64,000 nucleotides of DNA from a virus. The notes beneath the pieces are model-generated. The model did no database searches, was not told the origin of the DNA, and saw only the letters and a list, made by a program, of their open reading frames with translations. A program made the position numbers and the translations under genes. The stretch lies in the UHGV virus genome UHGV-0213541. One strand, given 5' to 3'. Shown in pieces: positions 3,553 to 35,721 of this stretch (positions within the stretch are counted from its first letter, which is position 1; every line of letters begins with the position of its first letter).

Positions 3553-6500
3553 ACCGGCCTTGGTATTTGTCATAGATGCAATCGCAGACAACGCTGTTGC
3601 AATCGTCGGCATTGCATCTCCTGCTTTAACTAATCCGTCCGCGAAATCAAGTGCGGCGGTTCCTAAATCGATAAAACCTTTAACAAGTCCACTATCAAGC
3701 ACATCAGACGAGAAGGACTGGAAGGTGGCTTGGAATCTGGACAGCTTGCCCTGCACCGAATCGAGGAACTTGGAGTTTTCGACCTCGGCAGAGTTGCTGT
3801 CAGTTGCAAGCGCATTCATAACCTCGTCAAGCTCTTTGTAGTTCTCGATCAAAGCAGCAACAGCGTTGGCATTTCTCTTGCCACCCATGAGTTCGAGAGC
3901 TGCGCTGTGTTCCTGATCCGACATTTCTGACCATGCTGCGCCCATTTCTTTAATGATCTCGAACGTAGACTTATAATTTCCCTGTTTATCAAGAATATCG
4001 ACTTTCTGGTGAGACAGCGCATATAGTGAAGCTCTCAGTTTAGAAGTCGTTTCGGCCATGCCTTCAGCACTTTCACCGGTTGCTTCCAACTCGGTTTTCG
4101 TTGCACGAAGATACATAGACACTGTTTTTAGTGTTGTACCCACAGTTTCTGGATTTTGAACAACACGGTTCATGGCCGTAGCCAGCGCAATGCTCTCTTC
4201 CAGTGTATTGTTAGCACTCTTTAATGCGGCTCCACTCCGATTGATAGCCTCCCCGACCCCATCCGTAGAAATGGCAAATTTGTTACCAGCGGTATTATAC
4301 TCATTAACAATTCGCATAACATCGTCAGCTTCTACGCCAAATGCCTGCATAGAAGAAATAACCATGGAGCTTGCGTCGTCTATGCTACTGATACCATCGC
4401 CGACATTTTTCAGAAGCAAAGCGGCATCGGAAACTTTTTCAGCATCATCAATATTAAAGCCAAGACGTGCAAAATCTGCTGTACTATTGATAACGTTTGT
4501 CAAGCTAGTGCCAAGTGTTTTTGCACGAGTTCCAGCATCCTCCATAAATTGAGAATATCTGGCGCTCGTCTCATCCGTAACCTTCTTCAGCTCGGTCATG
4601 GCGCTGTCAATGTCCACAACATTCTGATACACCTGACGCAGTCCCTGCTGGAACGCATTGATCACCTGATTTGCCAGCTGGCTCTTGATGTTGACCTCAA
4701 ACAGTTTCTTGAGCTTAACAGCTAAAGTGTCCGTTTCCAGCCCAGCATCCTGAATCTCTTTTTTCAGAGTAGACCATGCCTTGGACATTTCATTGGCGTT
4801 GTCTTTTGTAAACTCTTTAGACTCAATCTTTGGCTTCCACGAATTAAAGAAGTCCGTAAACTTAGCATAAGCTTCCACATTCTTGGAGATAGCACTATTA
4901 TTATTAAAATAACGCTCTGCAGTATACATTGTATTCTGCATGCTCTTTCCCCAAGAGTTCTCGTTCAGCTTTGCCTGTTGTTCATCGTTGAACTCCTTAG
5001 CACTCTGCTTTGCCTGATTGATCCTGCGGCTTACCAATGCCATAAACTCGGCAAGATTCTTAGCTGCTGTACCGGATTCCGACAATTCATTAGCAAACTG
5101 CTGGAACACGCCAGTCAGCTGTGTATAATCTCCACTGTCAATGACATTTTTCAACGCATCACGGATACCAACATACCCAGTAGAACTATCACCGTTCATC
5201 AGGCGCATAAAGGCCGAATCATCAAAGCCTTTATCGCGTGCGTTACCAAGATTGTTTTTATAAGCATTCATCGCCTTATCAATCTCGGTGATTCTGGAGT
5301 TCACATTATTGTATTGGTTTCGTAAAGAATCATCCGCCTTATTCTTGGCACTGTCCATCTTTGATTCCAATTTGTTCATAGCTGTGGTCAACTGTACTAT
5401 AACTGTATAGTATTCTTTTGCTACATTCACATTATTGGGATCAAACATTGCCTGCCCGCGCAGTTCTCTGGCTTTTCCTAACAGATCTTCAATAGACTTT
5501 GCAATATCTTGCATTTCTGCATTTGGCTGTATGTTTTTAGAAAATTCATCATATCGATTCAACAGGTCGTTTGCTGCTTTTCGCTTTTCTGTCGCATTGT
5601 TAATGTTTTCTTGCGCGTTTTCAAACTTCTCTGCTGCATACGATGCGTCAACAAACTCTTTTCTTACATATGTAATAATATCGGCTAGACTGTTCAAACC
5701 ATATCCAGCAGCTGTTGCCTTTGTACGCATATCCGTGAACAACTTGCCAGACAAAAATTCTTCGACATCACGCTCAGAACTAATATTGCTTATAGCAGCA
5801 ATGACTTCCTGAATATTCGTGACAAAATCCTTGCTGCTTTGCAATCCTGCACCAATACCAGTATTGTTGTTAAATCCAGCAAGCAAGCTCTGTAACGAAC
5901 CAACAACTCGATCTTTATCTCCAAGCTGCGTTGCAAAGTCTTTTTGCAAACTATCACTTACAGAATACCCAGCCTTCTGTATTTTTGTTTCCAAAGCATC
6001 GACCGATTTTCCAAGCCTTTGGATTGCATTGTCGTATTCTTCAACAATAGCAACATTGCTGGAGTCAGCAATTACTTGTCCACGTAATTCGCGTGATTTT
6101 TCCAACAAATCAGATACAGAATTTGCAAGGGCTACAATTTCAGATTTTGCGGTGTTAGACGAAGCGTAACTATTGTATTTATCAAGTACATCGTTGGCCT
6201 TCTTTCTGGTTCCTGTTGCGCTTACCATTTTTTTATCAAAGGCAATAGATTCTTTTTGCGTACCAGTAACAGTCGCCACCCTGCGCGTAGCTGCCTTAGT
6301 AGGCTGACTGATCTTCCCAAGCTGCTCTGTGATTGCATCATTGATAACTTTTGCAAAGTCGGTCATGTTGACCTTGTCAGCAATACCCTGCAGCTTCAGC
6401 AAGCCTGCCATACTTGCCTGGATGCTATCAGCAGCAGCATTCAAAGAGTCAAAGACAGTGACAAGCTCGTTGAACGCATTGACAATCGTATCCTTATTAC

Positions 6501-9138
6501 CCTGTACCGTATCAGATTTAGCCGTAATAGCGTCAACTTTTGCTTGCAACGCGCTCGTGTCCTCAAGCACCGCGACAACCTGCTTCAGCACATATTCAAT
6601 CGAGGCTGCAAACTGCTGCGCTGCTTGGCTGACCTCCTTATTGACATCCTGCTGCGTCGGGATCTTGTTTTCTTCAACAGATTTTGTCTTGGAGGTCGTT
6701 TTCTTTTTGCCCTTATCGGTGCTCTTTTTGCCAGTTTCTATCTTAGCCTTGCTGGCATTCTCGACCTGATCAAGAGCCTTATCAAGAGTCTGTGCGCTTC
6801 CTGCTAACTGTGCGCCGGTAGCAGCCACACCCTGCAGCTTGGCTACGATCTGACCCAGTGTTTCATCAGTGGTATCCAGTGCCGCAATAATCTGCTCAGC
6901 AGCAGCCTGCGCATCTTTTACATAGCTCTTTGCTCTGGTGACAGGGTTCGTTGTTTTTGCCTTGTTCTTTTGCGTGTCCTTGTTAGATTTATCGCCCTGA
7001 ACGATGGTTGTATCATTCAGAGTCTTACCAACAGCGCTAATGACTACAGCTTCCTCAGTGAAAAATTTCGTAAGACTGCTAATCGCATCTTTGTAAATAT
7101 CGACGCCTGTTTTCAGCCCATCAAGTGCGTCCTTATACTGTTGCAGTGTGCCGCCGACATCTTTGAGCTTGGCATTATCCGATGTTAGTTTATTTACAAA
7201 GTTGGTAATCGTAGTCAACAGTGCTTTCAGCTTGGAGACTTCCATCTTGCTCATGGCATTGGCAAGTTCCTCTGCGTCGGATTTTGCGCTGTTTGTATTC
7301 GATTGAACACCCTGTTGCGCGGCCTCAAGCTGCTTGACAGACGACATGGCCTCTTTCACCATATCATCAAGGCGCGTTTTCTCATTTTTCGCGGTTGTAA
7401 TAATCTCTTCTTCGACTTTAAGAGTACCACGTTTAGCCAATGTCAAACTGGTTTGCCGCTCGATGATCTGATTCATTAAAGTGAGCAGTGCATTGCCAGC
7501 TTCAATGTCCTGCGTAGTCAACTGACCAAAACTGATCTTTTCAAAGTTCTGCGAAGTCATATCACTGATGTCGGAAATGACCTGATCGATGCCAATAGAT
7601 ACATTTTTGATGTTGTCGATGAACTTAGAATAAATATCAGCATTCATCTTCTTGCTGACATTACCATCAATATCGTTCATCGTCTCATCAAGTTTCTGCA
7701 TGACGTTCAGAACCGATTCAACGCGCTGACGTGTAGAATCGTCCAGCTTACTCGTGTCTATACCGGAGAACATAGACTTGATGCTTTTAGAAAATTCTTC
7801 GATCTTGCTCTTGTACGTACTCATGTACATCAAGAATCCGGTATCATAATCCGTCTCAGTTTTTGCCGGTGTAGAAATAGCTGTCTTTAAACCAGACTGA
7901 ATCTCAGTGGCGATGCTGATGACACTATCCTTCATCTTTTCAGCGTCGTCTTCCACTTCTTTCTGAGTCTGTTTCAGCGTACCCTTCATAATACCGCTGG
8001 CAACTTCGCCAATTTGTTTGGCACTGCCCTCTACAGTTTCGCGGGCAATCTCACCGCCACGTTCGTACATGGTTGTCTGTATATTAGACAACACCTTGTC
8101 AAACTCAGCGCCGATATCCTTGGATCCACTGGTGAGAACAGTCATGATCAGGTTAAAGTCGTCAGAAATATTCTTAGCGTAGATCTTCAGCGCGTCTTCA
8201 TCGTCGGTCTGGTTTACAAGTTCTACATTGGACCCAATGTCGCTATACAACTTTTGGATCGTATCTTTGATTAGCCTGCCGCCAATTTCATACTCTTTAG
8301 AAATGTCAGAAAAGACGTTCTTGTCTCCAAACTTGCTTGCGTACATTTTACGCAGAAAATCTGCAGCCTGATCGCTCTTTGCACCTTTACCGTTGTAATT
8401 TTCAAAAACATCAGCACCAATATCCCTGTCATACTGCTCGTAAAGGTCTTTCATCATATCTACAATGACCTGAGCATCACTGTCTTTGATCTTTTTAATG
8501 GTATTTTTGATTTCAGCACCGGATTTTGTTGCAGCAGAAGTAATTGCATTCGTAATATTAGAAAATGCTTCTTTTACCTGCGACTCGTCAAACGCCTGTG
8601 TGTAATCTCCTGCGCTTAAAGTGTTTAGAATATCTTTCTGAACCTCGGCAACAACGGCCTTATTATTTGCAGCGGCCTTTTTCAGTGCAGACAGATTTTT
8701 CTCTTGATCTCGTAGCGTGTTGTATATAGGGTCTTCACGTTGGGCAGTCTGCATGTTTTTATTCATCATGCTAAAGGTTCTGCTCAACGCCAGAGTCTGT
8801 GTCATGACACTATTGTACTTATCCAGCGATTTAGTGTAGTTTTCCTGTGTGATATTGCCGGTTTTCAGCATGGTCATCACATCTGCCATAGCACCCTGAT
8901 ACAGATCCATCGTGCCAATGACAGTCTTGATAGACCCCATAATGTCAGCAGCATATTTATTCACGCCGCCTGCAATGGCGTTATAAATCCGCTTGGTCTG
9001 CTTATCAATGTTCGTAATATCAAACTGCGGGTCAACCTTGATTTTCAGTTTTTCACTCTGCTCAAGCGCCCGAATTTTTGTACTGACCTCTGATGTGTCA
9101 GGCATTACCTTCAGTTTGATTCTTAAATCCTCCGCCAT
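3553..9138 (-). CDS. Phage tail tape measure protein, exon 1 (1862 codons; the unspliced ORF runs 12 codons into the intron and stops at 3514)
   Basis: Long helical protein; TP901-type core DSAMTELKKVTDET...STADFARLG...VGTTLKTVSMYLR; last gene of the tail block. Confidence 0.9.
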
Positions 9139-20108: not shown

Positions 20109-23002
20109 ATGTACCCCTCCTTCTGGCAGGTGCCCTAAAGTTTATTTCGATTTTCTTTGTCTTAGCGTAATTCTTTGCCATGCTGCGCTCAACCTGCATT
20201 GCTATGTAGTAGTTGTAACTAACCGAGCTGTAACGGTCCTTGCGTGCGCCGGGCTTTTCATGTACACGGATCAAATTGTTTGTCGCCTCATAATCAAGGT
20301 TGACCAACTCATTGACCATCAGCCCTGTATTGATAAACGGCAGCTGTAAAGCAGTGCGCTCTGTCGGCGTCATCTTGTCATAGCCCTTGAACTGCGCACG
20401 CAGCAGCTCCTCGCAATCGTACTCGGAATCAAGGAACCGGATACGTCCCTGCTGAATACCGCTTCGCAGTGCAATCGTCACATCATTGTTGAACTGTGCG
20501 CTGCCCATAATGGCCCAAATTACCTTGGGCGCGGTCTTATCTGGGCATCTGTCCTGGAAATCAGCGTTATTGCAGCAGTTCAGCGGTGGGAATATCTCTC
20601 CGCTCTCCGGGTCATAACACTCGTGCATCAACAGGTCCATGATCGGGGCACCAAGGCCCTTGGCGTCAATACCGATGTAGTCGCAGTCAAACCATTTAAA
20701 ATAACGGCGCAGTTTTAACACAAGGTCCTGCGTGATGATACCTTCGCAGTTTTCCGTATATACCATGTTACTGGTATATCGTCCACTGCTGCTCGGGGTC
20801 ATATTGTTCAAGAAAATGCTCGTTGCGTCGTTATCGCTATGCTTAGAACTCATCAAAGCAATATCGACCGTCAAAATACGCTTCTCCCCTGGCTTTTTCT
20901 TGGGCGGTTCAATAGATCTGCCTGCCAAAATAGTGCCAGGCGCATAAAATGCCTGCTTCAGATTGCGCACCTTGTTTATATCTTCAAAGCTGAACAGCCC
21001 GCCATCGGTCACGCCGATAAACATGGCTTCCATCTCCATACGGAACTTAATGTCGCTGAACGAAGATTCGGACATCTCATCCTCAACCTGCTCCAGTGAC
21101 AACATACCCTCTTTTACAGGCATCTGATACGGGAACCGGAAGCAGAAATATTTTTTGTCTGTGGCGTACATATTATAGAAATAGTCCTGGCACAACTGCC
21201 ACGACCAGTGAGATTGAAACCATGCTGAACTCAAGTACATTTCAATAGGTCGTTCCAGCAAATGTTTGTACTGCTTCTTCCGTAAATAACCAGGCTGGCG
21301 TGCAACCGTCAGGAAACGACGCAGGACCAGATCAATGACATCCTTGTCGATCATACGGAACTCGTCGCAGACCAGAATCGTAGCACGATGTCCGCGGGAG
21401 GTATCGCTCGCTGTAACAACTTCGATAAAGCTGCCATTACGGAATGTAATCTCAGCCTTACTTTGATTGATGACAACATCTTTTATCTCACTGCGCAATA
21501 GCGGCGACATTGGCATAAGTTCCTTGGTTATCTTTTCAAGAACCTGCGCACCCTGACTTCGAACCTTTGCGCAAACTACTATTTCGCTGTGCGGATAAAG
21601 AATCGCCTTATAAACGATGAATACTGCTGTCAGGAAAGTCTTTCCTAGCACATTGTTATCCTACCGGCTTTTTATCCGGCAGTTCTTATGGTTTCCCATA
21701 AGGTCAGCATACATTTTCATCCATGTAGGATGTCGGACACTCGTGGGCAGATTATATTCTATCTATGATAGGGTCACTGCCTATGCGTTACAATACTGCA
21801 CTTTATTAAAGGTACAGTTATCTCGGTATCAGCATTATCAGCCTTTACCGATTTTGCCCGATGCACTCAAGCAGATTTCTCCGCCTGTGGGCCTAAATTA
21901 GAAATATAGATATTGTATTTACGTAATAATTTTGGTGCATTATCATCTGCATACATAAGTTCACATAATCTTCTCATGTCATTTGTTTTAGTAACAACAA
22001 CACGGTTTTTCATATCGTTTACCTTATATACACTACTGCTGACACCATAAAGCTCTAGTAATTTCTTTTGACAAAATAGCGCAAATTCGTGATTTGGCGT
22101 TGTTATATTGATTTGAACTCTATTTTTCCCTTTTGCTGTATAGTTATAAATACATCCATTTCCATCAAAATATCCTCTATAGAAATCAATGAATAAGTCA
22201 TCGCTAACAATAGGGTGCTCATTTTTGTATGTTTTATTTTGAACAACACCATTCGACACTAGGTCCTCTGCCATTGCTCTGCTGTACATACGAAGCACAG
22301 ATGAATGAGTGTTACAATAACTTTGAATTATAAAAACGTGTTCTTTGTCAATATCTTTTATCTGAAAAACGCCGCCGAATACATTATTTAAGCGCTCCAG
22401 CATATATTTATCGTTACGTTGTAATTCTATACTTATCTCGTAATTTGATCTGTTTTTGTCGCAAATTACCCAGCCATCAGCGTAAAGCAATCCAAGCCAA
22501 TATGCTTTTTCTTTGGTATCAATATCTTTAAAATATCTATTATCAAATACTCTTTTTTTACGCATACCGAGTCTCAATGCCCTAGCCTGTATTTGCTTGG
22601 CTCCATAGCCTAATATCTCGCCAATCTCGCCGCTTGTTTTTGTCATATAGTTATCCAGTATGTATAAATCTTCTTCTTTTGTAAACATTGCTGGACGACC
22701 AGTAGGCTTAACTTTACTCATACAATATCTCTCCTTATTTTTAAAATAATAAAGAGAGGGCGGGTGTCTATCCCGCAAAATCTCTAATTTTGTTGACCAC
22801 GACTTCCAATGAAGCAGAAATTCGTCGCCAGATTCATCATAAAAAGCAAGACGACCTGGAACGGATGCAGCTCTAAGTTTAAATAGTCCTTGCAAAATCG
22901 GTGCGGGTTTGCCCTGTAAAAAGAGCACCACTTCGCCACCGCGTTCATGATTTGCGTAGCCTTGTCATTTGCAACTTCTTCTGCAGTTCTTTTCTGAGCC
23001 AT
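20098..23002 (-). CDS. terL: Terminase large subunit, spliced: exon 1 23002-22796 + exon 2 21648-20098 (585 aa)
   Basis: Joining restores Walker A GSRG|LGKT; Walker B ILVCDEF; nuclease domain LTVDIA...KDRYSS. Confidence 0.9.
21649..22795 (-). ncRNA. Group I intron in the terL Walker A motif (1147 nt)
   Basis: Exon ends in U (GGU), intron ends in G; P3 UCGGGCA 21855-21861 / UGUCCGA 21733-21739; P4 UCGGU/ACCGA; P7 GCAUA/UAUGC in GUAACGCAUAG 21781-21791 and AAAAUGUAUGC 21707-21717. Confidence 0.88.
21867..22721 (-). CDS. Intron-encoded LAGLIDADG homing endonuclease with N-terminal HTH/Myb-like domain (284 aa)
   Basis: AYWLGLLYADG and FYRGYFDGNGCI motifs; own SD AAGGAG before ATG 22721; AT-rich. 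Confidence 0.88.
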   Translation of the reverse strand: MSKVKPTGRPAMFTKEEDLYILDNYMTKTSGEIGEILGYGAKQIQARALRLGMRKKRVFDNRYFKDIDTKEKAYWLGLLYADGWVICDKNRSNYEISIELQRNDKYMLERLNNVFGGVFQIKDIDKEHVFIIQSYCNTHSSVLRMYSRAMAEDLVSNGVVQNKTYKNEHPIVSDDLFIDFYRGYFDGNGCIYNYTAKGKNRVQINITTPNHEFALFCQKKLLELYGVSSSVYKVNDMKNRVVVTKTNDMRRLCELMYADDNAPKLLRKYNIYISNLGPQAEKSA

Positions 23003-25860: not shown

Positions 25861-26682
25861 TTACATCGTAGAATGCCGCTGTCTGTATTTGCGTACTCTT
25901 TCTCTTGTCTGTTCTCTTTTTATGATCTTGGCACAATCATCACAATATTTTGTCATGTTCCCTCTTGCCGTAAACGCACAGCCGCAGCTCACGCAGAACC
26001 GTATGTTTTTCAACCCCACCGTTTGATACAAAGCATACAGGTTCAGCCGATTTGTGTCAGGCGTAACAACCATCTCGTATACAACTTCATTATTCTTCAA
26101 ATCATAATTCTCGTAGGTATAATAACAGCCAACCTTCTTTGCGGTATGTTCGCTGTCCGTCCGCAGCAGGATGCCGTACTCATCGCTCACCGTCTCCATC
26201 CCTATCGGCGCGTGATAAGTCTCGTACCACTTTCCCTTTCTGATGGTAACATCATGCAGGTGCGATTCAAAACAGCCGCAAAACCGCTTGATCTTAAACT
26301 CTGTCGTCAAATCTATCGTGTCCATATGTAAAATCCTACACATCATCACAACGCCAAACAGGCAAAGTTGCTCTTTCTGCTTCAGATTGTGTGTCTCAAT
26401 TTGTGTCATGATCCATTCAAGGTCTTGTTTATATACTTTTATACTGTCAATCTGTAATAACTCACATGTCTTCGTTCCGCAGGTCTCAAAATGTCTTACA
26501 AGGTCATATCTGTCGTAGTTCAAATTCAAACTGTTGTCAAACATCGTAAGGTACATATCAGCACATTTGTCAGGCGTCATTCCGCTGCGTCCAATCACGC
26601 GCTTCAACGCACGGTTTCCCAAATCGTTCTTCTTGTAATGATCAAGCAGCATCTTCTCGTTGCAGTAAAAATCATAAAACAT
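25861..26682 (-). CDS. Hypothetical protein with C-terminal Zn finger and basic helix, coupled to the RNA polymerase gene
   Basis: CVSCG...YCDDC...REQTRERVRKYR; SD GGAGGTG. Confidence 0.7.
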   Translation of the reverse strand: MFYDFYCNEKMLLDHYKKNDLGNRALKRVIGRSGMTPDKCADMYLTMFDNSLNLNYDRYDLVRHFETCGTKTCELLQIDSIKVYKQDLEWIMTQIETHNLKQKEQLCLFGVVMMCRILHMDTIDLTTEFKIKRFCGCFESHLHDVTIRKGKWYETYHAPIGMETVSDEYGILLRTDSEHTAKKVGCYYTYENYDLKNNEVVYEMVVTPDTNRLNLYALYQTVGLKNIRFCVSCGCAFTARGNMTKYCDDCAKIIKREQTRERVRKYRQRHSTM

Positions 26683-29600
26683 CGCAGTCACCTCCCGGTA
26701 CAAGCTCTGCATCGATATACTCTACCGGGATGTCGCTTTCCACAGGGGCCAGCGTATAACGCTTTCCAAGGTACTCGTACTCGCCGTCATCGCACTCCTG
26801 CGGTAGGCAGATGTTTACCTGTTTGATGTTCTCTACTACACCCTTACCGGCCATCTGCCACATGAACTTTTTGTTGCGGCTCTTATACTTGTCATAGCAC
26901 AATACCACACAAATGTTTGCAAGCTCACGCACATCCGGCACGATCTGCTGGCACCGGCTGCGGTAAATGTTGTAGTAATACTGCCAGTTTACCTCAAAAT
27001 TCGTAGCGATCTCTTTCGTAATGTTCTGTTCTCTTAAAATATCTTTGTACGTTTCGTAGTGTCTGCACTGGTGATTCAGCTCCGCCAAATCCCTGCACAG
27101 CTTGTAAAATTCGCAAAATATCAACTCAATAGCGTCAAAGTGTTCCTGGGCATACCCAATCTCTTCATCAAACATGATCCTCCAGTCGAACTTTTTCATG
27201 CGCCGTTTTCGGATCGTGTTTTCCCAGCGCTCAAGCTCAAAGCACAGCATGTTCATGTTGGAGTGGGCACAACTCAGCTTTTTCATCCGCTTGTAGTACG
27301 GGCTTGCGTACTTCATAAAATACGGCAGCGGACGACCGTATTTCGCAATGTTGCGGGGCACTGGGTAAAGCACTCCCGTCTTGGCAAAATCGCATTTCTG
27401 CTTTTGGACTATATCATCATCTCACATCTGTTGGACTATGAGAGGCTGGCACTTCCACGCCGGATTTTCACCAGAACGTGTACTCCCTTGCGGGATAGTC
27501 TCTTAACCTTCCCCTGTTATGGGGCTTGGCACAGGATTATTCATTTGACCTTCCCTGTCAGCCTGTTATCTTACCACCATTTCCTGCGGCTCCTAAGCGT
27601 ATAACAGACACCCTGCTCTTGCAGGTTCACCAGCTTTTACACTGAACGTCACCGTACAGCGCCACCGATTTTGATGGCTTTCGTTACTACTCTATGTTAC
27701 CATAGGGACTAGACTATCTCTTCCGCATTTCTGCGGCCGTGCGCTTCGACCGGGCTACCAACTCCGGCCTACATAGCTACATTCATCACTATTAGTCGTT
27801 ACGCCTTCCTCTTGCGAGGCTTGGCACGGTATTGTCTCCTACCCAAGAGAGTTTCACCGTTAGCCGCCATAAAGACGACACCGCTGGTAAGGCGTTCACA
27901 CAGTTTTACAACGGCAAGGCTGTTTACCGTTGACCACAGACAGCAGATCAACATATCCCTCATATCGCTTTTTCTGCTCCTGTGTTTTTGGCGCTTTATT
28001 GTGATATGCACTCGCATAGTTGCTTATCTCTCCAATGGAGCTGCGCAAGCTGCGAATAATACAGTTTGTTCTGTTCTGGATGCTGTATTCTTCCTTCAAT
28101 GCAGTGACCTTATCCTCAACATCAATGACCACAGAAGCGTTGCGATCAACACCGCTCATAATTATAGGGTCATTAACAATCAACGTGAGATCACCGTCAT
28201 ACGTACCTACGATATATTTTGCGTAGGTGCTGACTATATCTTCTGCCGTTTTCGGCAGCGGTGCGCTCCCAGTCGCGTATCAATAGCGGCCGTACTCCGG
28301 TACACTCATCCCGGATAGTCGATGCACTCCTTGCGAAGCACAGGATTCTCCCCTGCGGGCATTCCCTGTTAGCAGCCGTTAGGCCACACCCCTGATGAAG
28401 GGTTCACACCGTTCCAAATGCTGTGTTACCACAGCCCCGAACCATGACTGATCCGCGCCATTTAATCGCTGCGGCGTGATACTTTTGCAGTTTACAATCG
28501 CCGTGTTGACCAAATGTCCACAATACTTCTCCAGAAGTTCGTTCGTTGTTCCTTTTAAAATAACATGTTCACTCTTGCAAATATGTGGGTTCCGCTCTAA
28601 CAATCGCTCACCAAGCATGGTTCCTGTTCTGTCAAAGCAAAAGAATTCATCCGCCTCCAGCGATCCCTTTAAGGGCAACCCGCCGATGTGTTCCATCAGC
28701 ATAATCAAATCAGGAGTTAATGTTTTGAAAGTTGATTTAGTCCAGAGCTTTCCACACTTCATATCATCGCGGTACTTCCCAAGCAAGTTCACAATGTAAT
28801 TCCGCACGCCGTCCTCGTTCATCATCTCCGGGTTTTTGAGAATGGCTGCGCAGTAGTCGTTCAACGCCTTATGCTTATCAGCGTACATGCCAAGAAAGCA
28901 GTATGTATAAATCGGGTCGCCGTCTGTGATCTTTTCAAACCAGTTGATGCTGTCATCTGCGATAGAGCGGAACTTGTCATACGGCAAGTCCAAATCCTGC
29001 AAAATCTGGTAGTTTGCCCGCGTCATAAGCGGCTCCGTATCGGCATCGAAGTTCCACTTGGCAATACCAAAACAATGGTTGTACTTCTTGAACTGATACC
29101 AATACTCCTCCCAGTCCGCAATCGTGCCGGTTTTGTTGAAGTAGGAGTATCCCTTGTACTGTCCCTCCGTCAAAATCATCAGCGGTTCTGCGCCCGGGCT
29201 TACATCGTGCTGCACACCCCAGATATCTGTAATGAACCGCACGCCGCGCTCTGCAAAAAAAGTCTCATAGTCAACACTATGAACCACGCCCTTCATCAGA
29301 GGGAGCCTGATCACCGCGCTCGTAATCGGCGTATCACTGCCAATCCTACGGCGAACTTCCTCCATGATCTTCGGATGTGCAATGCCGCAGCCGTCAAATG
29401 CGTTGATGGTAATGTCGCGGACGCCTTCCGTGATGTCCTTCTGTGTCCAATCACGCTCTGCACCGGTGTTCTTATCCTTGAACTTGATCTTTCTATCATA
29501 CACATACTTGATGTGCTGGTCCTTAATGGTCAAAAAACAGTCCGGAACAACGACAATATTCGGCACCCAGCCCTCAATGCAGTGGCAACTGGAGAAGCAC

Positions 29601-30022
29601 AACCCCCGATAACCAGAATACTTCGATATAACACACTTTTCAAAAGTTATTCCCATCGTGATACGCTTATCCAGCTCCTTGGCGATTCGTCTGTCAACAA
29701 AACTCAGGATGCCCTGCCGTACCATGCTGGCACTGCGCTCGCTCACCACAAATTCCTGCTTGCCAACCTTGAACCCGTGGTGGATCAGCCGCGTCATCTC
29801 TTTCTTTTTGTTCTGCCCGCCCACGCAGTTCACAAACACCACAAAGCGGTTGAATTTATCGGTCTCATATGTAATCAGCCGTACCTGCCGGAAAAGCATG
29901 TTGTCTCCCTGTTTTACCTGAAAGCGCTTTTCTTCATCCGGGTCAAGCTGGATGTTAAAGTTGTTGCTTATAATAAAGGAAAGCGGGAACTTCCTTACGA
30001 TATACAGCGGCGGTGAAAACAT
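26672..30022 (-). CDS. yonO: YonO-like single-subunit RNA polymerase, spliced from 4 exons: 30022-28451, 28201-27926, 27681-27674, 27392-26672 (858 aa)
   Basis: RSASMVRQG, FDGCG, IRLP..KG, RNPH; splicing restores GAD|YDGD and NG|KAI|DFAKTG; exon lengths 1572+276+8+721=2577 nt, in frame. Confidence 0.9.
27393..27673 (-). ncRNA. Group I intron 3 of the RNA polymerase gene (281 nt, ORF-less)
   Basis: P1 GCCAU/GUGGC; perfect P10 AAAAUCG/CGAUUUU; P3 GCUGGU/GCCAGC; AAGAGACUAU (27495-27504) and GAUGAUAUAGUC (27407-27418). Confidence 0.9.
27682..27925 (-). ncRNA. Group I intron 2 of the RNA polymerase gene (244 nt, ORF-less)
   Basis: P1 CAACGGU/GCCGUUG; P3 CUGUGUG/CGCACGG; GUAACGACUA (27793-27802) and AAGAGAUAGUC (27712-27722); ends in G. 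Confidence 0.9.
28202..28450 (-). ncRNA. Group I intron 1 of the RNA polymerase gene (249 nt, ORF-less)
   Basis: Exon ends GAU, intron ends G; P1 CGGAU/GUUCG; P10 GUCAUG/UAUGAC; P3 CGGUGUG/CGCACCG; CAUCGACUAU and AAGAUAUAGUC (28232-28242). Confidence 0.92.
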
Positions 30023-34911: not shown

Positions 34912-35721
34912 TTATTCGCCAACAAAAATGTACTGATTAACATAATCCCGATTTTCACCTTTCAAGATTGGCATTTCAGTATCAAGTACCCACTGCCCAT
35001 CCTTATTGATACAGGCTGTACCACGTTTGCATGTGGTAGGATAATTATTCCAGTTGACGTCAAATTGCCACATAAGCATGTCCTGAATGTCGTTGCATTT
35101 CTTCCCCTCCAGCTGTTTGTATGAGAAATATGCTTGCCCCACCATCTGGATGGAATTGCGTGTCGCATCGAGCTGACGCCAATAGATAAGGTTACAAACT
35201 TCTTCCTTTGGGATATTGAAGCAGCGGGCGTCGAACATAGCGCCTTTATTGGCGGCAGTCGTCATCTTTGCAACATACTCGTTATGAGCAATTTGTACAT
35301 CTATAGATTGTGGCGTAAGACTACTTTTCCATGCAGAATCTTCGTTCCAGATAGACATTCTGAAGAATTTATTGAACGCCATCGTTGCCATACTGGCGGA
35401 CACACTACATAGCTTCTGAACTTCGTAATCGAACCAAGCATCCGTGGTAAGTGTCTGGTAGTCAATCAGGATCAGTGTGATTTCATCGGACTGTGTATAA
35501 CCAAACACGCAGCCTTGGATATTCTTGCACAGGTACATCATGGTTTCCTGCATAGATTTCATCAGGATCATGTCAAAAGGCTTCTGAAAGCCACGAGTAA
35601 AGGTGTGGAAGCTTTTGCCGTCAATTCTCAGTGCAACCGGCGTTCGGCGCATTAACTTTGTTTTAGGAACTGCCTCGTAATACTCTTTCATACGGGTGCC
35701 CATGGAATCATTAAAGCTCAT
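34912..35721 (-). CDS. thg1: tRNA(His) guanylyltransferase Thg1-like 3'-5' polymerase
   Basis: RIDGKSFHTFT, YTQSDEITL, FDARCF and WRQLDATRNSI motifs. Confidence 0.92.
   Translation of the reverse strand: MSFNDSMGTRMKEYYEAVPKTKLMRRTPVALRIDGKSFHTFTRGFQKPFDMILMKSMQETMMYLCKNIQGCVFGYTQSDEITLILIDYQTLTTDAWFDYEVQKLCSVSASMATMAFNKFFRMSIWNEDSAWKSSLTPQSIDVQIAHNEYVAKMTTAANKGAMFDARCFNIPKEEVCNLIYWRQLDATRNSIQMVGQAYFSYKQLEGKKCNDIQDMLMWQFDVNWNNYPTTCKRGTACINKDGQWVLDTEMPILKGENRDYVNQYIFVGE

Follow-up and report, generated by a model that had tools for sequence, protein, structure and literature searches.

Phage genes with several introns, and micro-exons enclosed by two group I introns, have been described before (published cases are cited here and below from the parts of the papers that were available). 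In orf142 of the Staphylococcus phage Twort, three group I introns are present and a 23-nucleotide (nt) exon lies between introns 2 and 3 (PMC10136302, PMC11878797, PMC3073962); the two introns flanking this exon are highly similar, and the exon is skipped (PMC10136302). In placozoan mitochondrial cox1, two group IB introns enclose an exon of 1 nt (PMC5436844), in Synechococcus C9 the numbering puts introns L1917 and L1931 14 nt apart (PMC1995217), and a 34-nt exon is reported for Coxiella (via PMC10136302). Mobile group I introns also occur in phage RNA polymerase genes, both of the PhiPA3/phiKZ type (PMC11878797) and in gp273/274 of 201phi2-1 (PMC2919709). The phage enzyme YonO serves as a DNA-dependent RNA polymerase of late genes, an activity demonstrated for SPbeta only (PMC5467207). 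The current study concerns a yonO-like gene at nt 26672–30022 (minus strand) of a 64,000-nt stretch of the virus genome UHGV-0213541, the whole of which is referred to as the window. This gene is interrupted by three separately gained and lost group I introns that are very probably spliced out, restoring an enzyme of 858 amino acids (aa) in which an 8-nt exon is kept.

Like Twort orf142, this is one phage gene with three introns of group I, a pair of them around a short exon, but the exon is here 8 nt, short enough for the paired regions P1 and P10 of its two neighbours to overlap on it, its skipping shifts the frame, and the host gene encodes an RNA polymerase. In contrast to the similar introns of Twort, the flanking introns are only about 50% alike (146 of 293 alignment columns). 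As in the placozoan, Synechococcus C9 and Coxiella examples, the micro-exon appears to result from two independent group I insertions and to be kept in the mature RNA; those examples are in organelle or rRNA genes, whereas this one is in a phage mRNA and shows all four presence/absence states among close relatives. The PhiPA3/phiKZ type likewise has mobile introns of group I in an RNA polymerase gene essential to the phage, but its enzymes are the multi-subunit polymerases of jumbo phages, and the introns of the window carry no endonuclease gene. The locus is a tight new instance of a known arrangement, and its exon is smaller than the phage exon of 23 nt that was found in the literature (the small exon of phiNIT1 lies outside this comparison). 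The part that exceeds known forms is the lineage of intron 3, which lacks P9 and has a long P10.

Architecture of the interrupted gene

Exon 1 (nt 28451–30022) encodes aa 1–524, its last residue being the first Asp of a DxDGD motif, and is followed by intron 1 (nt 28202–28450, 249 nt), which separates D524 from Y-D526-G-D528. Exon 2 (nt 27926–28201) encodes aa 525–616. Intron 2 (nt 27682–27925, 244 nt) and intron 3 (nt 27393–27673, 281 nt) enclose the micro-exon (nt 27674–27681), which encodes K617, A618 and two bases of I619, and exon 4 (nt 26672–27392) runs from the last base of codon 619 to the stop codon and supplies aa 620–858. All are on the minus strand, and none of the three introns contains an open reading frame (ORF). 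Successive exons match successive parts of phrog_8308 (positions 120–550, 551–628 and 644–835 for exons 1, 2 and 4). Excision of all three inserts (28450–28202, 27925–27682 and 27673–27393) gives a single 858-aa frame. Retention of any subset cuts the protein at 547, 625 or 626 aa, so that all three must leave precisely, and omission of the micro-exon causes a frameshift with a stop at 667 aa.

The joined product is identical to P0001, a natural intron-less protein of 858 aa found with exon 1 as query, at 848 of 858 positions without gaps, and the 61 full-length homologues compared are all contiguous over both junction regions (the DxDGD and G-K-x-I-D-x-x-K-T-G motifs). A first-pass annotation had proposed this split gene and an alignment of its product to intron-less homologues as a check; that alignment is contiguous, and the coordinates, intron lengths, preceding U, terminal G, 8-nt exon and 858-aa frame it gave all agree with those found here. 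The DNA of intron-less alleles, which include L001 and L016 (about 99% identical) and L012, L025 and L042 from other clades, places the insertion sites at coding sequence (CDS) nt 1572, 1848 and 1856; site 1572 is empty in L001, L004, L005 and L016. Judged from the window alone, intron 2 could slide by +3 and intron 3 by +1 with the product unchanged, but the rule of a preceding U and a terminal G fixes both boundaries, and the second clade allows no slide at site 1848, which again fixes that of intron 2. The three inserts and the micro-exon are confirmed as real and clearly delimited.

A YonO-like RNA polymerase

P0001 shares 23% identity with SPbeta YonO over 634 aa (E value 6e-30) and matches the Pfam RdRP family with 50.8 bits. 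A structure model of P0001 (predicted local distance difference test, pLDDT, 89.8) matched RDR2 and QDE-1 in Foldseek with E values of 6e-21 to 4e-16 and template modelling (TM) scores of 0.45–0.55. The fold search was needed, as a profile search of the sequences of solved structures returned a single irrelevant match. Residues D524, D526 and D528 of the DxDGD triad are invariant in all 43 aligned proteins, and so are G616, K617, I619, D620 and K623; intron 1 is consequently inside the catalytic motif and introns 2 and 3 are inside a second invariant one. The YonO-like identity proposed in the first-pass annotation is borne out, and by its two-barrel fold resembling eukaryotic RNA-dependent RNA polymerases, the triad, homology and late-gene position the protein is a predicted single-chain polymerase of this type, about 100 kDa in size.

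As with SPbeta YonO (839 aa), the gene encodes a single chain bearing the DxDGD triad and is located upstream of genes for terminase, portal and tail proteins that share its strand; in the window these are terminase, portal and tape-measure genes. Unlike the window gene, SPbeta's own yonO is free of introns, and for the window protein the polymerase activity is predicted. An integrase and an anti-repressor encoded elsewhere in the window suggest a temperate phage. Relatives are found on contigs as long as about 150 kb, both in sets of viral and gut-metagenome sequences and in genome records of Bacillota, the named records being gut Bacillota. A scan for promoters and terminators gave counts at chance level.

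Group I intron structure

All three inserts have a P3/P7 pseudoknot, a G-C pair after the bulge at the guanosine site, P4, P6 and P8, together with a P1 of 5, 7 and 5 pairs in introns 1, 2 and 3, respectively, in which the U preceding the 5' splice site faces a G. P7 and P4 are 100% paired in all three alignments and P3 is 92–100% paired; P7 is invariant apart from a single compensated pair in intron 1. Among all mapped introns a U precedes 160 of 160 and a G ends 159 of 160. At sites 1572, 1848 and 1856 the corresponding values are 52/52, 39/39 and 36/36 copies for the U, and 52/52, 38/39 and 36/36 for the G.

Pairing was counted on structures drawn by hand on the window copy, including the P7 pseudoknot. 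Paired cells amount to 97.8% in intron 1, 93.9% in intron 2 and 95.3% in intron 3, against 29–53% in controls with slid partners. Pairs changed on both sides number 25 in intron 3 (12.0 ± 2.0 after shuffling), 11 in intron 2 (6.7) and 9 in intron 1 (6.5). These conserved cores with covariation support the earlier recognition of three group I introns from P1, P3 and P7. When nine copies of intron 3 were given to RNAalifold, it recovered P1, P2, P3, P3.1, P3.2, P4, P7.1, P7.2 and P8 unaided, and R1, a model built from intron 3, also detects intron 1 (38.2 bits) and intron 2 (55.3 bits). With MAFFT, the 5' ends of intron 2 were misaligned between the clades, as were the 3' ends of L087 and L092; for P1 and P10 of intron 2, and for P10 in distant copies of intron 3, the pairing was taken from a scripted in-register reading and not from the pair counts.

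In intron 1 the P1 guide is at nt 28442–28438, P10 at 28448–28443 (6 pairs), P7 at 28320–28316 with 28236–28231, and a normal P9 at 28228–28205. Intron 2 has its 7-pair P1 with the guide at nt 27915–27909, P7 at 27797–27793 with 27716–27711, a P9.0, P9 at 27705–27692 and a weak P10, and no P2 stem was modelled. The P9 helices of these two introns (7 and 5 pairs) are 95–100% paired. Introns of the phage-type subgroup IA2 have P7.1 and P7.2 between P7 and P3, and a short P5. Both P7.1 and P7.2, which serve as classifying features (PMC3984707), were found in all three introns and point tentatively to IA2, a subgroup reported to be heterogeneous (PMC11878797).

Single copies of intron 2 in the window's clade (L065, nt 5369–5612; L179; L183; and one X4 contig from public sequencing) end in A instead of G. 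In L065, P9.0 is compensated, and L065, L179 and L183 have a perfect P10 of 5–6 pairs. A terminal A is also known from a Coxiella intron.

Intron alleles and mobility

At sites 1848/1856, 77 haplotypes were distinguished: both introns are present in 38, intron 2 alone in 9 and intron 3 alone in 6, and 24 lack the two. The counts are drawn from the 125 loci above the score cut out of 240 (which include duplicates between searches), the 115 below it being uncounted; two rows of an 88% clade have a 3-nt register offset that voids their micro-exon comparison. Doubles occur in two clades whose proteins are about 75% identical and whose intron versions differ from one clade to the other; they are the commonest state in the second (36 of 52 haplotypes), while single-intron and empty alleles are common in both. 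Long versions are known at each site, with an HNH gene at 1572 (788–797 nt) and GIY-YIG genes at 1848 (1153–1157 nt) and 1856 (956–965 nt).

The three introns of the window are just 49–60% alike in global alignments, and so are not recent duplicates. Judged from these sequences, they read as independent mobile elements, introns 2 and 3 sharing a hot spot and forming no designed switch, and the haplotype counts support the hot spot. Each would have homed into conserved active-site codons (DxDGD; K-x-I-D-x-x-K) and later lost its endonuclease, and the micro-exon would accordingly be a by-product of two insertions 8 nt apart.

Further introns were seen in the same gene, at CDS nt 399 (L011, L047, L059), 729 (L062–L065) and 1578, near aa 590 in L087 and near aa 243 in L175. 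Long introns at 399 and 729 have DUF7487 and DUF559 ORFs, likely of endonuclease type. The DxDGD motif has a second insertion site 6 nt past that of intron 1, occupied in L029 (nt 5579–6535) and eight other loci and in L092 (nt 5579–5862), by two types of intron: one with P9 and a NUMOD4-HNH gene, the other without P9. It is never occupied together with the intron 1 site in 73 mapped loci; both together would leave a 6-nt exon.

The micro-exon and the order of splicing

The micro-exon supplies K-A-I and, as the first-pass annotation had noticed, has two roles, being the 3' exon for intron 2 and a strand of P1 for intron 3. Its nt 4–8 form the P1 strand of intron 3, with pair probabilities of 0.94–0.997 in a local fold, and P10 of intron 2 would take up nt 1–2 and 4–5 in the window's clade or nt 2–6 in the second clade; because of this overlap the two helices are never complete together. 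All 38 double haplotypes have the 8-mer as an exact single copy, and it differs by one base in 9 of 9 intron-2-only and 7 of 13 empty haplotypes (two clades), a constancy that fits either a constraint from P1 of intron 3 or simple linkage. The cross-pairings needed for skipping are weak (3 of 10 in register between the intron 2 guide and exon 4; 3 of 7, interrupted, between the intron 3 guide and the end of exon 2), so that inclusion of the micro-exon should dominate.

P1 of intron 3 would be a short local hairpin that captures nt 4–8 of the micro-exon once it is made, and the exit of intron 3 would free the micro-exon for P10 of intron 2. On this folding model we lean towards intron 3 leaving first and intron 2 second. 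The reverse order could use the terminal G of intron 2, its P9.0 and two free A-U pairs. Ordered splicing had been suggested in the first-pass annotation; with helices overlapping on the micro-exon an order is plausible, but it is not implied, as in the second clade the presence of intron 3 makes no difference to the pattern of P1 and P10 of intron 2, and the placozoan 1-nt exon yields both intermediates (PMC5436844).

It is unlikely that introns 2 and 3 are spliced in a strict order, with the tandem serving as a checkpoint on late transcription that has been selected for. Such a checkpoint agrees with the competition between P1 of intron 3 and P10 of intron 2 for nt 4–5 of the micro-exon (4–6 in the second clade), with the predominance of doubles in the second clade, and with the last base of intron 2 in the window's clade, which is G in the two double haplotypes and A in the three single ones. 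However, single-intron and empty alleles are frequent in both clades, an excess of doubles would also be expected from co-conversion during homing across 8 nt, and the placozoan intermediates and the unaltered intron 2 pairing speak against it as well; given the latter, nothing shows adaptation to the tandem state. Independent insertion at a shared hot spot, with intron 3 tending to leave first, is preferred here.

A group I intron lineage without P9

Intron 3 has a 5-pair P1 (guide at nt 27665–27661), P7 at 27500–27496 with 27411–27406, and a P10 (27673–27666 with 27392–27385) of 8 consecutive pairs, not the seven counted in the first-pass annotation. The latter had also described its P9 as almost absent. 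The helix is lacking in the window's copy of intron 3, but this is no quirk of one copy, as it is absent throughout the lineage. Only 12 nt (27405–27394) separate the 3' strand of P7 from the terminal G. All 36 near copies have a spacer of this length, compared with 23–37 nt in intron 2 (39 copies) and 25–28 nt in intron 1 (52 copies). At site 1856 in further loci it measures 12 nt (L184), 11 nt (L186), 6 nt (L092), 4 nt (L087) and 3 nt (L162). The last three share only 44–59% protein identity, and cuts at their proposed 3' ends restore the motif and the frame. The intron of L092 inside DxDGD (nt 5579–5862; 133.9 bits with R1) is a second member of this lineage in that locus, with a spacer of 5 nt. 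At the end of intron 3 a 3-pair hairpin is predicted in 7 of 9 copies; it takes in the terminal G together with the first base of the exon, is impossible in the shortest copies, and is consequently no conserved P9. Intron 3 is otherwise a group I-like variant, with a core invariant in 9 of 9 aligned copies and a P5 that is no more than vestigial in the window's clade. Each of the 11 junction variants at site 1856, which have three different 3' exon sequences, allows 6–8 guide pairs of P10, and this pairing keeps pace with the 3' exon in loci of 44–59% protein identity. Having no P9, intron 3 would locate its 3' splice site by the long P10 and the terminal G alone.

Relatives of intron 3 are present in named phages. 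In 16 of 24 records of SPbeta-like phages yonO is in two pieces, and in the two examined, Goe11 and phi3T, it is split by an unannotated group I intron related to intron 3. That of Goe11 (L240, nt 3992–5281; 1290 nt) contains a GIY-YIG gene and leaves 839 aa on removal; that of phi3T (L242, nt 2276–2675; 400 nt) has no ORF and leaves 835 aa. In both, the intron follows the Asp of the motif that intron 3 interrupts, at a point 4 nt past the site of intron 3 in the window, and has a normal P9. A literature search found no paper on introns in yonO, and the available parts of the papers checked are silent on the Goe11/phi3T intron. As P9 is kept in Goe11, phi3T and the DNA polymerase intron of Remus, its loss in the intron 3 lineage looks derived on this sequence comparison.

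The only case of natural P9 loss found in the literature, coverage of which is incomplete so that novelty is not certain, is the trans-spliced mitochondrial rnl intron of the alga Prasinoderma, modelled without P9; its authors call the absence very unusual and leave open a possible missing third piece (PMC3873408). Engineered circularising ribozymes function without P9.2 (PMC11417360). Intron 3 is likewise a natural group I intron apparently without P9, but it is continuous, its 3' end is set by empty alleles or a restored frame, and the loss recurs across a lineage. P9 is treated as a core helix and has here been lost from an intron that interrupts an essential gene, so the intron probably must work.

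It is doubtful that introns 2 and 3 form a composite unit, or that intron 3 is defective without P9 and is helped by intron 2 or by a host or phage protein. P9 has been termed an essential paired region (PMC3873408), and its absence, together with the vestigial P5 of this clade, would be in line with a defect. Against this, intron 3 occurs alone in six near haplotypes and in the distant loci L087, L092, L162 and L186, excision of both introns as one block loses the micro-exon and shifts the frame, and the core is invariant in all nine copies, although dependence on a protein could go with that.

Intron 3 may represent an undescribed, still mobile natural group I lineage that lacks the whole P9 domain (spacer down to 3 nt) and finds its 3' site by a long, co-varying P10, and that, 8 nt behind intron 2, captures the micro-exon first and so sets a 3-then-2 order for a late RNA polymerase; this combined interpretation is put forward tentatively. 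The natural alleles, which have either intron alone, the two together or none, keep or lack P9, and end in G or A, provide a ready series on the roles of P9 and P10, and on how two ribozymes share one 8-nt substrate.

Evidence for splicing

Ten public sequencing runs were found, four of them with part of the stretch and none with more than 0.21 of its words, and all the material is contigs. One contig of X1, a run of uncertain type and possibly of DNA, connects exons 1 and 2 precisely at the predicted bases. It was rejected as proof of splicing, because intron-less alleles of the same clade exist and the pattern of mismatches does not separate them. One X4 contig has intron 2 and not intron 3.

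Splicing of the three introns is inferred from sequence and not observed, and several points weigh against it or limit its support. In the four public runs no contig spans the junctions of the micro-exon (junctions 2 and 3). Protein helpers are possible, as some phage introns are spliced in infected cells yet not in vitro (PMC11878797). An Rfam search of the whole window gave no match at the gathering score: with RF00028 (gathering score 50) intron 2 reached 39.8 bits and intron 3 31.5 bits, and intron 1 had no Rfam match at all; the related Goe11 phage intron was missed too. The pair counts are supportive and no proof, since those of introns 1 and 2 come from 2–3 clades with few independent changes, and the two-sided count of intron 1 was reached in 18 of 500 shuffles. 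By folding z-score the introns (-0.8 to -2.2) do not stand apart from exon controls (-1.0 to -1.5), and the order of splicing comes solely from a local folding model.

That the inserts simply stay in, leaving a decaying pseudogene or separately translated pieces, is nonetheless scarcely credible: although splicing is inferred only, and gene callers list the 547-, 625- and 626-aa pieces as proteins, the end of exon 1 inside DxDGD would part one catalytic Asp from the other two, exon DNA of intron-bearing loci in the window's clade is 94–97% identical to the intact allele without indels, and the intron helices show compensatory change. Removal of all three introns is the favoured reading, and in practice gene callers fragment these polymerases.

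Other features of the window and related phages

The terminase large subunit gene (minus strand) is also split, with a 72-aa start at nt 23002–22784 and the rest at nt 21651–20098. The insert (nt 21652–22790, minus strand) contains a gene for a LAGLIDADG endonuclease (ORF at nt 21867–22931) and is probably a further group I intron; neither Rfam nor model R1 matched it. Enterocloster phage CB473P1, a gut phage in culture whose genes include one for a YonO-like protein, has a group I-like RNA (L244, nt 1294–1625; 68.1 bits with R1) just before a gene annotated as an intron-associated endonuclease. In the window, a 283-aa gene of unknown function (nt 25861–26712, minus strand) has an overlap of 41 nt with the polymerase stop, so that the two may be translated together, and a gene for a Thg1-like tRNA-His guanylyltransferase lies at nt 34912–35721 (minus strand).

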